DNA of 25,801 nt, taken from IMG/VR virus record IMGVR_UViG_2693429554_000019, one strand, 5' to 3'. Origin of the DNA: a virus (lineage: Duplodnaviria > Heunggongvirae > Uroviricota > Caudoviricetes). Shown piece by piece: positions 4,006-25,801 of this stretch. Position numbers and translations under genes: made by a program. Within the stretch, counting starts at the first letter, position 1, and each line of letters starts with the position of its first letter. Under the pieces are notes generated by a model. That model was not told the origin of the DNA. It saw only the letters and a program-made list of their open reading frames with translations, and searched no databases.

Positions 4006-4232
4006 TGGCTGATGCAATGGATCTCGTACAGCAGCGCGTTGAAGAAGAACGCCAGCGCCATATCCGTGCTGCCCGTGCCAAAACGCCGGGCGTGTCCCGC
4101 GTGCTTTGCATTGAGTGTGAAGCGCCAATTCCGCCAGCACGCCGCCGCGCCATTCCAGGTGTGCAGCTTTGCATTACCTGTCAGGAAATCGCAGAGCTGA
4201 AAGGCAAACATTACAACGGAGGTGCTGTATGA
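4005..4232 (+). CDS. TraR/DksA-family C4 zinc-finger protein
   Basis: Two Cys pairs, CIECEAPIP and CITCQE, spaced as in TraR/DksA C4 fingers. 75 aa. AGGAG 8 nt upstream. Stop overlaps the Dam start (ATGA). Confidence 0.7.
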   Translation: MADAMDLVQQRVEEERQRHIRAARAKTPGVSRVLCIECEAPIPPARRRAIPGVQLCITCQEIAELKGKHYNGGAV

Positions 4233-5086
4233 GCACCATCCTGAAATGGGCGGGAAATAAAACCGCCGTAATGTCCGAACTGAAAAAACATCTTCCAGCT
4301 GGCCCGCGACTGGTTGAACCTTTCGCGGGTTCCTGTGCTGTGATGATGGAGACGGATTATCCCAGCTATCTGGTTGCGGATATTAATCCTGATTTAATCA
4401 ACCTCTATAAAAAGGTTGCCGCTGATTGTGAATCGTTTATATCTCGCGCCAGAGTTTTATTTAAGGAAGCAAACAGGGAGGTGGCTTATTACAACATAAG
4501 GCAGGAGTTTAATTACTCAACTGAAATTACTGATTTCATGAAAGCGGTATATTTCCTGTATCTCAATCGTCACGGTTACCGTGGGTTATGTCGCTATAAC
4601 AAGAGCGGGCATTTCAACATTCCCTACGGTAATTATAAAAATCCGTATTTCCCTGAAAAAGAAATTCGCGCATTTGCAGAGAAAGCCCAACGAGCAACGT
4701 TTATCTGCGCCAGCTTTGATGAAACGCTGGCGATGTTGAAGGCGGGGGATGTGGTGTATTGCGATCCGCCGTATGACGGTACGTTTTCCAGCTATCACAC
4801 TGATGGTTTCACTGAAGATGACCAGTATCACCTGGCATCCGTTCTTGAACATCGGTCATCAGAAGGACATCCGGTCATTGTTTCTAACAGTGACACATCC
4901 CTGATCCGTTCGCTGTATCGCAATTTTACTCACCACTACATCAAGGCAAAACGCAGCATCGGCGTAGCAGCTGGTGAGAGTAAATCTGCAACAGAAATCA
5001 TCGCTGTTTCTGGGGCGCGCTGCTGGGTGGGATTTGATCCTTCGCGTGGCGTGGATAGTTCTGCCGTGTACGGAGTGCGTGCATGA
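4229..5086 (+). CDS. dam: Orphan DNA adenine methyltransferase (Dam-like)
   Basis: Motif [10 protein letters not shown] and motif IV DPPY ([12 protein letters not shown]); C-terminal AKRSIG resembles the E. coli Dam C-terminus. No restriction-enzyme partner nearby. GGAGG 8 nt upstream of ATG 4229. Stop overlaps the A start (ATGA). Confidence 0.85.
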
Positions 5087-7650: not shown

Positions 7651-7839
7651 ATGCAGGACTATTTTTTGGAGTCTTTGAAGCTCCAGCGCATTGATTTTTT
7701 TCTTAAGCTTGTAGCGGCTAGTGAGTGTAGTGATGAAGAGAAGGGGCTGGCTCTGCAGTGGGTTTCTGAACTAACAGATGAACTCATGGCAAAAATCAGA
7801 ACCCACGAATACAACCGCTCAATGGATGTCATCAGCTGA
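7651..7839 (+). CDS. Small SOS-regulated protein (62 aa), possibly Tum-like antirepressor moiety
   Basis: ATG at 7651 preceded by AGGAGGAAAG; downstream of the LexA box. The track ORF from 7549 is an untranslated N-terminal extension. Function inferred only from context with the DinI-like gene. Confidence 0.45.
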   Translation: MQDYFLESLKLQRIDFFLKLVAASECSDEEKGLALQWVSELTDELMAKIRTHEYNRSMDVIS

Positions 7840-7849
7840 GGTGACTTTT

Positions 7850-8083
7850 ATGCGCATTGAAATAATGATCGATAAAGAGCAGAAGATTAGCCAGTCTATC
7901 CTGGACGCCCTTGAATCCGAGCTTTACCGCAATCTGCGCCCCCTGTATCCCAAAACGGTAATTCGCATCCGCAAAGGTAGCTCTAACGGTGTGGAACTGA
8001 CAGGACTGCAACTGGACGAAGAAAGAAAACAAGTGATGAAAATTATGCAGAAGGTGTGGGAAGACGACAGCTGGCTGCATTAA
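7850..8083 (+). CDS. DinI-family protein (77 aa)
   Basis: MRIEIMIDKE...ILDALESEL...KVWEDDSWLH parallels E. coli DinI (MRIEVTIAK...IDALAGEL...ETWESADDWF). GAGGTG 6 nt upstream of ATG 7850. Co-directional with the preceding ORF, so probably under the same LexA box. Confidence 0.7.
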   Translation: MRIEIMIDKEQKISQSILDALESELYRNLRPLYPKTVIRIRKGSSNGVELTGLQLDEERKQVMKIMQKVWEDDSWLH

Positions 8084-8099
8084 GAAACGTTGCCCCAAG

Positions 8100-8418
8100 A
8101 GAATTTATTCTGATGGAGGTTAGTTTGGACAACGAGTGAAATAAGGTGGGCGGTCATTTTGATAAATGATCGTCCGCTTTGTGCCAGATATAGTCATTCG
8201 AACCCTGAGAGTTACACTTTTAAGTGATTCAGGGTATGCGCTTACTGGTTACGAATATTGTGCCAGAATCATGTGATTTGATGATTGCCGCTTTGCTTTC
8301 GAGCCAGTAAGTGCTCCACGTTCGCTAACGAATACTCAGGGCATGCAGAAAACTGCTGACTATATTTCTTTCGAAGAACGTGGAATGCATACCAATCCCC
8401 GATAAAAAGGAGTTGGTG
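8100..8418 (+). ncRNA. Candidate IS110-type non-coding (bridge-like) RNA in the left end
   Basis: About 320 nt non-coding region directly 5' of the transposase. Imperfect inverted repeat TCCACGTTCG (8315-8324) / CGAAGAACGTGGA (8372-8384). Hypothesis only. Confidence 0.2.
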
Positions 8419-21036: not shown

Positions 21037-21430
21037 AGCGGTGCCTTATGTCCGCAATAACCCGGACAAACTGCATCTGTTTGTGGATAACGGTTCGCTG
21101 GTTGCCACGGGGGCCGGCTCCATGTCATGGGAGTACCGTTACACCCTGAACGCGGTGATTGAGGATTTCAGCGGGGACCAGAATCTGCTGATGGCCCCGG
21201 TTTTGCTGTGGCTGCGGGATAACCAGCCCGATGCCATCAATAATCCGGCGTTACGGGAAAAACTATTCACCTTTGAGGTGGATATTCTGCGCAACGATGT
21301 CTGTGATATCAGCCTTAACCTGCAACTGACGGAGCGTGTGCTGGTCAGCACTGACGGCAGTGTGTCGAGCGTTGAAGCTGTAGCAGAACCCGATGAACCT
21401 GAAGAAATGTGGACGGTGAAACGTGGCTGA
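20999..21430 (+). CDS. R: Tail completion protein R (P2 gpR-like)
   Basis: GTG at 20999 with AGGAG 7 nt upstream. From VNKPQSLRHALNKAV the sequence parallels the P2 gpR N-terminus (MLKPDSLRRALTDAV). The track start at 20978 is TTG. Confidence 0.75.
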   Translation: MNKPQSLRHALNKAVPYVRNNPDKLHLFVDNGSLVATGAGSMSWEYRYTLNAVIEDFSGDQNLLMAPVLLWLRDNQPDAINNPALREKLFTFEVDILRNDVCDISLNLQLTERVLVSTDGSVSSVEAVAEPDEPEEMWTVKRG

Positions 21431-21869
21431 ACTGCAGAAGGTGGACGACTGGCTGAGTGCTTTGCTGGCGAATCTGGAGCCAGCCGCCAGAAGCCGCATG
21501 ATGCGCCAGCTGGCGCAGGAACTGCGCCGGGCACAGCAGCAGAACATCAGGATGCAACGCAATCCTGATGGCAGCAGCTATGAACCGAGGCGAGTAACAG
21601 CACGCAGTAAAAAAGGCCGCATCAAACGGCAGATGTTTACAAAACTTCGCACCAAAAAATACCTGAAAACCGCCGCCAGCACGGATTCTGCCAGCGTGCA
21701 GTTTGAAGGTAAGGTGCAGCGTATTGCCCGCGTTCACCATTACGGCCTGCGTGATCGCGTCAGTCGCAAAGGACCTGAGGTCCGTTACGCAGAGCGTCGT
21801 CTTCTGGGCGTAAATGATGATGTTGAGGCAATGACCCGCGACATGATTCTGCAATGGCTGGCGGGGTGA
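21423..21869 (+). CDS. S: Tail completion / virion morphogenesis protein S (P2 gpS-like)
   Basis: 148 aa after R, with a GTG start overlapping the R stop. Called by position in the conserved R-S-V-W-J-I-H order. Confidence 0.75.
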   Translation: MAELQKVDDWLSALLANLEPAARSRMMRQLAQELRRAQQQNIRMQRNPDGSSYEPRRVTARSKKGRIKRQMFTKLRTKKYLKTAASTDSASVQFEGKVQRIARVHHYGLRDRVSRKGPEVRYAERRLLGVNDDVEAMTRDMILQWLAG

Positions 21870-21873
21870 TCTT

Positions 21874-21891
21874 TGTATCAGCACTGATACA
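21874..21891. promoter_or_regulatory. Candidate late-activator dyad TGT-N12-ACA upstream of V
   Basis: TGTATCAGCACTGATACA: arms TGTATCAG and CTGATACA are exact reverse complements, spacer CA. In the 68-nt S-V gap, centred about 55 nt upstream of the V ATG. Confidence 0.45.
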
Positions 21892-21937
21892 AGTTGCAGC
21901 ACTGCCGCCTTTCTTCCCCTGATGGCAACCTTTCCCT

Positions 21938-22516
21938 ATGAACGCACAATTAACCGAAATCATGCGCCTTATCACCAACCTGATCCGCACTGGGGTAGTC
22001 ACCGAAGTGGACCGGGAGAACTGGCTTTGCCGGGTGAAAACGGGCGACCTTGAAACCAACTGGATCAGCTGGCTGACGCTGCGTGCCGGGAATGCCCGCA
22101 CATGGTGGCGACCATCGGAAGGTGAACAGGTGGTGCTGCTGAGTCTGGGCGGAAATCTTGAAACCGCCTTTGCGCTGCCCGCCATCTATTCGAATCAGTT
22201 CGCACCACCGTCGACGTCGGCGGACGCCTGCGTGACAGAACATCCTGACGGTGGCTGGTTTGAATACGAACCCGCCACCGGGCGCTGGTATGTCAGAGGC
22301 ATCAAATCAATGGTCATTGAGGCCGCTGACAACATCACCTTGAAAACCAGTGAGTTTGTGCTGGAGGCTGACCGCACGCGTATTAACAGCGAAGTGGCGA
22401 TCAATGGTGGCGTTACCCAGGGCGGCGGTGCGATGAGTTCTAACGGGATCGTGGTTGATGCGCATCAGCATACTGGCGTCCTGAAAGGCGGTGATACTAC
22501 CGGAGGCCCGGTTTGA
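21938..22516 (+). CDS. V: Baseplate spike/assembly protein V (P2 gpV-like)
   Basis: 192 aa. N-terminus MNAQLTEIMRLITNLIRTGVVTEVD parallels P2 gpV (MNTLANIQELARALRNMIRTGIIVETD). Confidence 0.85.
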   Translation: MNAQLTEIMRLITNLIRTGVVTEVDRENWLCRVKTGDLETNWISWLTLRAGNARTWWRPSEGEQVVLLSLGGNLETAFALPAIYSNQFAPPSTSADACVTEHPDGGWFEYEPATGRWYVRGIKSMVIEAADNITLKTSEFVLEADRTRINSEVAINGGVTQGGGAMSSNGIVVDAHQHTGVLKGGDTTGGPV

Positions 22517-22872
22517 CGCTTTATATCGGTATGAATAATACCAGCGGTAAAGCCATTACTGATATTGACCATCTGCGCCAGTCGGTGCGGGACATTCTGC
22601 TGACGCCGCAGGGTAGCCGCATTGCCCGTCGGGAATATGGTTCTCTGCTGTCGGCACTGATAGATCAGCCACAAAATCCGGCGTTACGCCTGCAGGTCAT
22701 GTCGGCTGTGTATGTGGCACTGAGTCGCTGGGAGCCACGGCTGATGCTGGATTCCATCACTATTAACAGCAATTTTGACGGTTCAATGGTGGTGGAGCTG
22801 ACCGGGCGGCGGAATAACGGTGTGCCTGTGTCCCTTTCCGTATCAACAGGAGCAGAGAATGGCAGTGATTGA
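22513..22872 (+). CDS. W: Baseplate protein W (P2 gpW / gp25-like)
   Basis: MTLYIGMNNTSGKAITDIDHLRQSVRDILLTPQGSRIARREYGSLL parallels P2 gpW (MTARYLGMNR...DILRTPVGSRVMRRDYGSLL). The track start at 22513 is TTG overlapping the V stop; an ATG at 22531 is an alternative. Confidence 0.8.
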   Translation: MTLYIGMNNTSGKAITDIDHLRQSVRDILLTPQGSRIARREYGSLLSALIDQPQNPALRLQVMSAVYVALSRWEPRLMLDSITINSNFDGSMVVELTGRRNNGVPVSLSVSTGAENGSD

Positions 22873-23767
22873 CCTTTCGCAGTTGCCTGCACCGCAGATT
22901 GTGGATGTGCCGGACTTTGAGACGCTGCTTGCCGAACGCAAGGCAGAATTTGTGGCGCTTCATCCGAAAGATGAGCAGGAAGCAGTGATCCGCACGCTGG
23001 AACTGGAATCTGAACCAGTCACCAAATTGTTGCAGGAGAACGCTTACCGTGAGTTGCTTCTGCGCCAGCGCATTAACGAAGCCGCGCAGGCGGTGATGGT
23101 GGCTTACGCGATGGGCGGCGATCTTGACCAGCTCGCTGCCAACTACAACGTGAAACGCCTGACGGTGACGCCTGCTGATAATGACGCTGTGCCGCCCGTT
23201 GCGGCTGTGATGGAAAGCGATGAAGCGTTACGCCTGCGTGTGCCTGCAGCCTTTGAAGGGCTTTCGGTTGCGGGGCCAACTGCCGCTTATGAATTTCATG
23301 CCCGAAGCGCCGACGGTCGGGTGGCGGATGCCAGTGCAACCAGCCCGGCACCTGCAGAGGTGGTGCTGACTGTCCTTAGCCGCGAAGGCGACGGAACTGC
23401 AGAAAAAGACTTGCTGGATGTGGTGGAGAACGCCCTGAACAGTGAGAACGTCCGCCCGGTGGCTGACCGTCTGACGGTTCGCAGCGCAGAAATCATCCCG
23501 TACCGAGTGGAAGCCACCATTTTTCTTTATCCGGGACCGGAAGCAGAGCCGGTAATGGCAGCGGCAAAAGCCAGCCTGCAGAAGTACATCGCCAGTCAGA
23601 CGCGTCTTGGTCGGGATATTCGCCGTAGCGCCATCTTTGCCGCCCTGCATGTTGAGGGTGTGCAGCGTGTGGAGCTGGCTTCCCCTCTGGCGGATGTGGT
23701 CCTGAACAAAACACAGGCGGCATCATGTACGCAGTGGAGCGTAACCAACGGAGGAACGGATGAATAG
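22859..23767 (+). CDS. J: Baseplate assembly protein J (P2 gpJ-like)
   Basis: ATG at 22859 with GGAGCAGAG upstream; about 302 aa. Position between W and I. Confidence 0.85.
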   Translation: MAVIDLSQLPAPQIVDVPDFETLLAERKAEFVALHPKDEQEAVIRTLELESEPVTKLLQENAYRELLLRQRINEAAQAVMVAYAMGGDLDQLAANYNVKRLTVTPADNDAVPPVAAVMESDEALRLRVPAAFEGLSVAGPTAAYEFHARSADGRVADASATSPAPAEVVLTVLSREGDGTAEKDLLDVVENALNSENVRPVADRLTVRSAEIIPYRVEATIFLYPGPEAEPVMAAAKASLQKYIASQTRLGRDIRRSAIFAALHVEGVQRVELASPLADVVLNKTQAASCTQWSVTNGGTDE

Positions 23768-24365
23768 TCTGCTGCCACCGGGTTCAACGCCACTGGAGCG
23801 CCGACTGGCGCAAGCGTGCAGCGGGATTTCTGATTTGCAGGTGCCGCTGCGTGACCTGTGGGATCCGGCGACCTGTCCGGTCAGTTTCCTGCCTTATCTC
23901 GCCTGGGCGTTCTCTGTGGATCGCTGGGACGAGGGCTGGACAGAAAGCGTCAAGCGCCAGGTGGTGAAGGATGCTTTTTATATTCATCAGCATAAAGGAA
24001 CCACCAGTGCCGTGCGGCGGGTGGTGGAGCCGTTCGGCTTCCTGATCCGCATTATTGAGTGGTGGCAGACTGGAGAAACACCGGGCACGTTTCGCCTGGA
24101 CATCGGCGTGCAGGACCAGGGCATCACTGAAGATACCTATCTGGAACTTGAGCGGCTGATAAGCGATGCCAAACCATGTAGCCGTCACATGATCGGCATG
24201 TCCATCAATCTGCAAACTAGTGGCCCGCACTGGGTAGGGGCCGCCAGCTATCTTGGTGAAGAAATCACGATCTATCCGTATATCAACGAAACAATTATTT
24301 CTGGCGGCACCGCGCATGAAGGCGGGGCGGTCCATGTTATTGACACAATGAGAGTGAATCCATGA
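23760..24365 (+). CDS. I: Tail protein I (P2 gpI-like)
   Basis: 201 aa. GGAGG 5 nt upstream of the ATG. Overlaps the J stop and the H start. Confidence 0.85.
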   Translation: MNSLLPPGSTPLERRLAQACSGISDLQVPLRDLWDPATCPVSFLPYLAWAFSVDRWDEGWTESVKRQVVKDAFYIHQHKGTTSAVRRVVEPFGFLIRIIEWWQTGETPGTFRLDIGVQDQGITEDTYLELERLISDAKPCSRHMIGMSINLQTSGPHWVGAASYLGEEITIYPYINETIISGGTAHEGGAVHVIDTMRVNP

Positions 24366-25801
24366 GCACAAAATTTTATACCCTGCTGACGGATATTGGC
24401 GCGGCGAAACTTGCCAGCGCCGCCGCGCTCGGTGTGCCGTTAAAAATTACCCATATGGCGGTAGGCGATGGCGGCGGAACATTACCAACGCCGGACGCAA
24501 AGCAGACTGCACTGGTAAATGAGAAACGCCGGGCTGCGCTGAATATGCTCTATATCGACCCGCAAAACAGCAGCCAGATTATTGCTGAACAGGTGATCCC
24601 TGAAAACGAGGGCGGTTGGTGGATACGTGAAGTGGGCCTGTTTGATGAATCCGGGGCATTGATTGCCGTGGGCAACTGCCCGGAAAGCTATAAGCCGCAA
24701 CTGGCTGAAGGCAGCGGGCGCACCCAGACCGTGCGCATGGTGCTGATTACCAGCAGCACGGACAATATCACCCTGAAAATCGACCCTGCCGTCGTGCTGG
24801 CAACCCGCAAGTATGTGGATGATAAGGTACTGGAGCTGAAGGTGTACGTGGATGATCAGATGGCAAAACATCTTGCAGCACCGGACCCGCATTCACAGTA
24901 TGCACCCAAAGAAAGTCCTATGTTTACCGGGACACCCAAAGCGCCAACGCCAGCGGCGGGGAATAACACCACGCAGGTTGCGACCACCGCGTTTGTTCAG
25001 GTGGCACTGACGGCTCTTATTAATGGTGCGCCAGCCACGCTGGACACGCTGAAAGAAATTGCCGCAGCCATAAACAATGACCCGAAATTCAGTACCACCA
25101 TTAACAATGCGCTGGCACTGAAAGCGCCGCTGTTAAGTCCGGCACTCACCGGAACGCCAACAGCCCCCACTGCCGCACAGTCGGTTAACAATACACAGAT
25201 TGCCACCACGGCTTTTGTGAAATCGGCAATTGCGGCAATGGTGGGGTCTGCACCTGCTGCACTGGATACACTGAACGAACTGGCTGCGGCGCTGGGGAAT
25301 GACCCGAACTTTGCCACGACAATGCTTAATGCGCTGGCAGGTAAACAACCGCTGGACAATACGCTGACTAATTTGAGTGGAAAGGATGTAGCTGGTCTTC
25401 TCGCATACCTTGGTTTGGGAGAGGGCTCTGCATTACCGGTTGGGGTGCCTGTTCCGTGGCCTTCAGCCACTCCGCCAACAGGCTGGCTGAAATGCAACGG
25501 TGCCGCTTTTTCTGCTGAAGAATACCCGGAACTGGCAAAGGCTTATCCGACAAATAAATTGCCTGATTTACGCGGTGAGTTTATTAGGGGCTGGGATGAC
25601 GGGCGTGGTATTGATGCTGTACGTGCCTTGCTAAGTCTTCAGAATGGAGGAGTGGAATCACACACCCACCAAGGGCAGCTCTTCAGAGTCAGTGATTATC
25701 GTACAAAAGAAATACCAGCATCAGAAGTTATGGGAAGAGGATATATTGCAAGCCTGACGCCGGGTGCTGATAGCCCACTTGATTTTGATGATTATTCTGT
25801 A
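24362..25801 (+). CDS. H: Tail fibre protein H, 5' partial (runs off the window end)
   Basis: Hand-translated from ATG 24362: open for all 480 codons to base 25801 (missing from the track because no stop is reached). N-terminus MSTKFYTLLTDIGAAKLASAAALGVPLKITHMAVGDGGG parallels P2 gpH. Two tandem ~55-aa repeats and a tail-collar-like segment (WLKCNGAAFSAEEYPELAKAYP...LPDLRGEFIRGWDDGRG). Confidence 0.85.
   Translation, partial: MSTKFYTLLTDIGAAKLASAAALGVPLKITHMAVGDGGGTLPTPDAKQTALVNEKRRAALNMLYIDPQNSSQIIAEQVIPENEGGWWIREVGLFDESGALIAVGNCPESYKPQLAEGSGRTQTVRMVLITSSTDNITLKIDPAVVLATRKYVDDKVLELKVYVDDQMAKHLAAPDPHSQYAPKESPMFTGTPKAPTPAAGNNTTQVATTAFVQVALTALINGAPATLDTLKEIAAAINNDPKFSTTINNALALKAPLLSPALTGTPTAPTAAQSVNNTQIATTAFVKSAIAAMVGSAPAALDTLNELAAALGNDPNFATTMLNALAGKQPLDNTLTNLSGKDVAGLLAYLGLGEGSALPVGVPVPWPSATPPTGWLKCNGAAFSAEEYPELAKAYPTNKLPDLRGEFIRGWDDGRGIDAVRALLSLQNGGVESHTHQGQLFRVSDYRTKEIPASEVMGRGYIASLTPGADSPLDFDDYSV

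Follow-up and report, generated by a model that had tools for sequence, protein, structure and literature searches.

The palindrome between genes S and V in the 25,801-nt stretch of viral DNA analyzed here (hereafter, the window) is, with a probability that we place at roughly 90%, the Ogr-family late-activator site of pV, a P2-type late promoter of a P2-like prophage. This identification draws on the sequence and geometry of the site, on its conservation, and on an activator gene found in a relative whose promoter is identical. In P2, Ogr binds conserved inverted repeats located around -55 of the late promoters, and the α subunit of RNA polymerase is needed (PMC3152322); the consensus TGT-N12-ACA is common to the promoters PP, PO, PV and PF (PMC3931495). 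The site in the window is likewise a TGT-N12-ACA inverted repeat, with perfect 9-nt arms. It precedes the genes V-W-J-I-H, has a sister site in the P/O gap, and is combined with a weak core promoter in which a -10 element is recognizable, the -35-like element matches at only three of six positions and no sigma-70 consensus is present.

The window is a P2-like prophage (Peduoviridae, Elveevirus-like) with the gene order int, CI, ..., A, cargo, Q, P / O, N, M, L, X, lysis genes, R, S / V, W, J, I, H, and its S-V region is 94–95% identical to those of Klebsiella and E. coli P2-like phages, e.g. 4LV2017 and 500465-1. The last gene of the upstream O operon is the tail completion gene S (21423-21869, plus strand; Pfam Phage_tail_S), and the genes that follow the palindrome are all encoded on the same strand: the baseplate spike gene V (21938-22516; Pfam Phage_base_V and GpV Apex), the gp25-like baseplate wedge gene W (22513-22872; GPW_gp25, with coordinates that agree by offset with 4LV2017), J (22859-23767), I (23760-24365, overlapping J) and the tail fibre gene H (from 24362 to the window end at 25801). 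The TTG start codon of W, with a GGAGG before it, overlaps the stop codon of V; J and I were taken from the ORF list with limits from 4LV2017 at an offset of +204, and the start of H was likewise placed by offset from 4LV2017, the ORF list holding no closed plus-strand ORF after 24365. The V operon presumably includes G too, beyond the window. Elsewhere in the prophage, the immunity repressor (1449-2105) is of the 186 CI type (PF07022 and PF16452) and not of the P2 C type, and a D12-class adenine methyltransferase is encoded at 4169-5086, upstream of gene A. The A-Q hotspot (7778-12203) contains a DinI-like gene (7778-8083), an IS110-family transposase (8380-9657), within whose ORF lies a perfect inverted repeat with 9-nt arms and a 2-nt spacer (8747-8766), and three ORFs without a Pfam or PADLOC match (9842-10306 on the plus strand, 10485-11210 and 11394-12203 on the minus strand); since A-Q is the classical P2 defence hotspot, these three are candidate cargo or defence genes. 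Another perfect inverted repeat, AAAGCGCCTGC-AGTA-GCAGGCGCTTT at 13086-13111, is found a short way downstream of the stop codon of Q (13128, minus strand) and, by analogy with the P2 annotation, probably represents tQ, the terminator of the P-Q operon.

A first-pass annotation of the S-V palindrome had described its arms as exact reverse complements around a CA spacer, fitting the TGT-N12-ACA pattern. Both statements hold in the window sequence, each arm being one base longer than had been stated: the putative activator-binding dyad, TTGTATCAG-CA-CTGATACAA, occupies 21873-21892 (no strand is assigned), with arms of 9 nt at 21873-21881 and 21884-21892 that are 100% complementary across the 2-nt spacer, and the TGT-N12-ACA core TGTATCAGCACTGATACA is located at 21874-21891. 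The position of the site in the 68-nt gap between the end of S (21869) and the start of V (21938) was also given correctly, and its distance from the V start codon, originally put at about 55 nt, is exactly 55.5 nt from the dyad center (21882.5) to the A of the ATG; the claim that the P-side site is equally distant from its own ATG proved exact, at 55.5 nt for both. Compared with TTGT-R-Y-S-A-T, the consensus of 20 homologous N12 sites, both half-sites agree at all preferred positions but the last. Within the window, TGT-N12-ACA is not enriched (four occurrences compared with 6.9 expected), and inverted repeats that are perfect over 9-nt arms, separated by no more than 6 nt, show only a mild excess (three loci, compared with approximately 0.9 expected from first-order Markov random sequences). 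Palindromy and the TGT-N12-ACA motif are, by themselves, weak evidence, and statistics confined to the window leave chance open.

The comparison of upstream sequences among relatives is decisive on this point. We collected 80 IMG/VR loci that encode a V protein at least 97% identical to that of the window. The 68-nt gap of the window is present in 60 of these loci and the other 20 form ten further upstream classes; ungapped identity between the eleven classes is 0.27–0.31, i.e. at the random level. Nevertheless, in every one of the eleven classes the last 100 nt before V contain exactly one TGT-N12-ACA, whose first base is at -63 to -66. By a rough estimate, the chance of finding the motif at such an offset is about 0.001 per sequence, so that for ten further unrelated sequences the joint probability is negligible. 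Addition of 160 loci, retrieved with P2 gpV and 186 Orf32 as queries, brought the number of upstream classes beginning at ATG to 58, with V proteins of the window, P2 and 186 types. In all 58 classes, a TTGT starts 64–67 nt before the V ATG, and in all except one (57/58) a -10-like N-A-N-N-N-T is found at -12 to -7 or -13 to -8. The 60 near-identical copies of the gap differ only outside the arms, in the flanks and the central spacer, a pattern that is only weakly significant given some eight substitutions in total (P ~0.09, a rough estimate). The same geometry upstream of V, with N12, was found in Salmonella SE479_1PHIH2, Klebsiella ST512-KPC3phi13.2 and Yersinia YenM_56.17, and with N13 in Aeromonas phage LPM4; phiCTX has an N13 site at about the same distance from V, as read by eye from the sequence. 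The arrangement is not universal among relatives: Klebsiella phage Kp4851-1 (L248, Reipivirus), whose V protein is 40% identical, has no dyad upstream of V. In this phage, V is directly preceded by GC-rich, coding-like DNA and is seemingly internal to an operon.

The ten upstream classes other than that of the window carry cargo genes between S and V, with the largest ORFs on the opposite (minus) strand, and the window represents the empty state of this S-V hotspot. Cargo was seen in L004, L007, L008, L015, L016, L025, L027, L057, L078 and L080 (positions 1-1500), as well as in L245-L247. Of six cargo ORFs analyzed with PADLOC, four were matched, namely to AriA/GajA/PtuA-like ATPases (L015, L025), an AbiU-like protein (L016) and the candidate system PDC-S59 (L078), and the ORFs of L004 and L007 yielded no match. 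Each S-V cassette comes with its own, non-homologous pV, the junction being at the V ATG. In L078, where S is visible and is separated from V by 1420 nt of cargo, the dyad adjoins V, 64 nt before it, and nothing dyad-like follows S.

A six-frame scan of the window for an Ogr-like ORF (C-X2-C-X20-24-C-X4-C) returned only one spurious match. The contig ends within H, which explains the lack of an activator gene in the window. We therefore turn to 4LV2017, a near-identical complete phage (Peduoviridae, Elveevirus), in which the S-V gap is the same 68 nt, identical to that of the window. Here, a 78-amino-acid protein with the pattern C-X2-C-X22-C-X4-C is encoded after gene D; its match to Pfam Ogr_Delta (PF04606) has E = 5.8e-22, and it shares 51% identity with P2 Ogr. 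Further TGT-N12-ACA sites are present in the P/O and G-FI gaps of 4LV2017 (the window ends before FI). Taken together, the sites and the Ogr_Delta gene indicate that the layout of the regulon is that of P2. The first-pass assignment of the palindrome as a late-activator site, made from its pattern, gains support from the pV annotation of P2, the conserved offset, the association of the site with V and the activator gene of 4LV2017.

Recognition of the palindrome by some other DNA-binding protein, either a global regulator of the host, for example CRP, or a system of recombination or insertion for which the site would mark the S-V cargo hotspot, appears very unlikely. Dyads of the form TGT...ACA do resemble CRP sites, and the S-V junction is indeed a cargo hotspot in relatives. 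The CRP consensus, however, is TGTGA-N6-TCACA, i.e. TGT-N10-ACA, whereas the site in the window and all its window-type homologues are consistently N12, and a CRP-type site is rejected on this spacing. A recombination target is hard to reconcile with inner site positions that vary between cargo variants, and any such alternative protein is disfavored by the presence of an Ogr-family gene and by the return of the motif in the P/O and G-FI gaps, exactly where further late promoters lie in P2. A role in RNA, as a hairpin causing termination or attenuation of the O-operon transcript past S or stabilizing the 3' end of that transcript, has even less to recommend it. The palindrome, located 4 nt beyond the stop codon of S, could fold as RNA into a 9-bp stem, and P2 does carry a terminator close behind S, but in the window the AT-rich stem precedes GTTGCAGC, with no T-run; it was not called by the terminator scan, and the region folds no better than shuffled sequence does (z = -0.75). 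Moreover, in the cargo-carrying relatives the dyad travels with V, remaining 64 nt before it, and is absent after S, and most of the homologous V sites are imperfect palindromes in which the TGT/ACA triplets and the distance to the V ATG are conserved, not stem complementarity. A terminator or RNA hairpin is accordingly rejected. As for a chance palindrome without function, the least credible possibility even though about 0.9 such repeats are expected by chance in a stretch of this size and TGT-N12-ACA is not enriched within the window, it is refuted by the comparative data, because the motif is kept at a fixed offset, inside a 4-nt positional window, in ten further unrelated upstream sequences.

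The preferred reading, an activator site of pV, fits the core promoter. A -10-like CAACCT (21926-21931, plus strand), whose second base is A and sixth base T, lies at -12 to -7 from the V ATG, and a putative, probably minor -35-like CTGCCG (21902-21907, plus strand; 3/6 to TTGACA) precedes it by an 18-nt spacer. A scan of 21400-22300 for consensus promoters found no sigma-70 promoter, as expected for an activator-dependent promoter, and a constitutive sigma-70 promoter at S-V is rejected on this basis. The sequence before the V ATG, GGCAACCTTTCCCT, contains no purine-rich Shine-Dalgarno core; across the 58 upstream classes such a core is found at -18 to -5 in only two, compared with seven of ten other genes in the window. 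An upstream start codon for V is excluded by an in-frame TGA at 21920-21922 and by the N-terminus, which is colinear with that of P2 gpV: the window protein is 40–44% identical to P2-type V proteins and colinear with them from residue 3. The V mRNA is therefore predicted to be leaderless, with transcription starting at the A of the V start codon (21938, plus strand), a placement that rests on the P2 annotation, the -10-like element in 57 of the 58 classes and the lack of a Shine-Dalgarno sequence. P2 has been counted with the small number of leaderless genes that are known from E. coli (PMC4633059). The distance of about 55 nt from dyad to ATG evidently applies only by way of the leaderless V mRNA, and the true rule would be a site at -55 from the transcription start.

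The palindrome had also been proposed to define the start of a V-W-J-I-H operon. This stands in the sense that pV would begin a transcription unit, and needs refining if an insulated operon is meant: a terminator scan of the S-V gap found no terminator, so that read-through from pO probably crosses V also, and pV would be the start of a nested transcription unit. Read-through RNA would give V no ribosome-binding site, which may be a reason for keeping a dedicated promoter.

The sister site, TTGTGTGGTTGTCGGTACAA, lies in the P/O divergent promoter region at 15965-15984 (core 15966-15983; no strand is assigned) and is also present in 4LV2017. From its center, 15974.5, it is 55.5 nt to the first base of the P ATG (15919, minus strand) and approximately 55 nt to the predicted pO start near 16030; in the P2 record, one site serves both pP and pO (NC_001895). 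In the region 15917-15984, read on the minus strand, a -10-like TAGGTT is found at -12 to -7 of P and no Shine-Dalgarno sequence was seen upstream of P in the window, and the N-terminus of P is colinear with that of P2 gpP. Judging from these sequence features, the mRNA of P, the large terminase gene, is probably leaderless in the window as well, unlike the P mRNAs of P2 and 186, which have a leader of about 23 nt with a GAGG Shine-Dalgarno sequence. A leaderless P may be indicated in several other Peduoviridae too: Yersinia YenM_06.16-2 has an N12 site at -65 and TAGCCT at -12 to -7 of P, Burkholderia SBP27 has an N13 site at -66, and in phiCTX the same geometry emerges if P starts at an ATG 21 nt downstream of the annotated GTG. 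A second TGT-N12-ACA, TGTGGTGTTCATTGCACA at 15908-15925, overlaps the P start codon and is kept in 4LV2017 despite two substitutions within the N12; it may be due to chance, to coding constraint on P, or to a second activator site. A joint reading, for and against which we would wager equally, is that pV and pP both start at the start codon and that the pV copies of the cassettes would have been repeatedly rebuilt, or selected along with the cargo, and not simply inherited. If both promoters do start there, the distance of about 55 nt between dyad and ATG would be the conserved quantity across much of the Peduoviridae.

By analogy with P2 and from the conservation described above, we infer the following course of events, in which activator binding, contact with the RNA polymerase α subunit's C-terminal domain (α-CTD) and the start site are the conjectural elements. 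Expression, late in the lytic cycle, of a gene beyond the right contig end would supply a small Ogr/Delta/B-family activator with a C4 zinc finger. This activator would bind the symmetric TTGTATCAG half-sites, centered at -55.5, and contact through the α-CTD would recruit the sigma-70 holoenzyme to a promoter too weak to act alone (CAACCT; -35 element 3/6). Transcription would begin at the A of the V ATG, give or take one base, yielding a V mRNA without a leader or Shine-Dalgarno sequence, which would imply direct ribosome binding to the 5'-terminal AUG, and W, J, I and H would be translated from conventional start sites that are coupled and in part overlap.

The finding holds up but is unremarkable: the switch is well understood in P2, and the picture of P2 late control is unchanged. 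The site would mark the start of the baseplate and tail-fibre transcription unit in a common group of Klebsiella and E. coli P2-like prophages, and provides a clean, fully symmetric example of an Ogr-family operator that would be useful for binding and structural work and for automatic annotation of late promoters. It goes somewhat beyond the textbook in the rigid spacing of dyad, -10 element and ATG across unrelated, cargo-linked promoters, and in the indication of a leaderless P. The spacing between the activator site, the -10 element and the V start codon survives the replacement of everything else upstream by defence cargo, and this rigidity supports a leaderless V mRNA as a family-wide trait and not a peculiarity of P2.

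Several known promoters bear comparison with pV of the window. The late promoters of the satellite phage P4, Psid and PLL, have a TGT-N12-ACA dyad at about -55 and are served by the same activator family (Delta/Ogr). These are satellite promoters, however, and contain an additional Delta site nearer the start. The TGT-N12-ACA consensus itself was derived from P2 and P4 promoters (PMC3931495). Class I promoters, such as lac with CRP at -61.5, likewise combine an upstream dimer-type site with a weak core and recruitment through the α-CTD (for Ogr, see PMC3152322), but CRP and Ogr are unrelated proteins, with a CRP fold and a C4 zinc finger, respectively, and both the spacing and the position of the dyads differ. 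The classical example of a leaderless mRNA in E. coli, alongside P2, is that of lambda cI from PRM, which similarly starts at the A of AUG without a Shine-Dalgarno sequence (PMC4633059); PRM is nonetheless another promoter with another activator, and the leaderless start in the window is a prediction.

Closer to the window is the B-dependent promoter p32 of phage 186, which precedes orf32, the V homologue, and shares the gene position and the TTGT offset, with a -10 element CATCCT at -12 to -7; in the 186 record, the pV/p12 pair is assigned a B-protein site. In sites of the 186 type, it is mainly the left half-site that is kept, and the right half, if recognizable, is ACAAAAC and two bases closer (N10). 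Most P2/186-type loci, including L087 and L165, have a TTGCCG at -35 to -30 of pV, separated by a 17-nt spacer from CATCCT, and the CTGCCG of the window is its counterpart. In P2/186-type pV, a GC-rich inverted repeat, GCCGCCGG...CCGGCGGC, fills the spacer from -41 to -11; in the window it is degenerate (CTGCCGCC...GGCAAC).

P2 itself, with four late promoters, provides the most direct precedent. In its record (NC_001895), positions 10239-10266 are labelled 'activator binding site; activation of pV promoter' and the V-operon start is given as 10308, the first base of V, and pV is Ogr-dependent (Christie & Calendar 1985, as annotated in NC_001895). In the same record, the other late promoters start 23–40 nt upstream of their genes, so that the coincidence of the start with the first base of V is deliberate. 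The differences are in detail: the S-V region of P2 contains orf30 and a terminator, whereas that of the window is an 'empty' 68 nt without a terminator; the V proteins are about 42% identical; and the P2 pV site is asymmetric (TGT-N11-ACA or TGT-N12-CAA), in contrast to the perfect 9+9 palindrome of the window. The P2 pO and pF sites read TGT-N12-CCA, and the asymmetry of the P2 sites implies that perfect symmetry is not required in the family. Common to both phages are the V-W-J-I-H(-G) operon, a promoter directly before V with the TTGT left half-site 65–66 nt before the ATG, a weak CAAYCT -10 element (CAATCT in P2, CAACCT in the window) and a distance of 55.5 nt between the center of the activator site and the annotated or predicted start.
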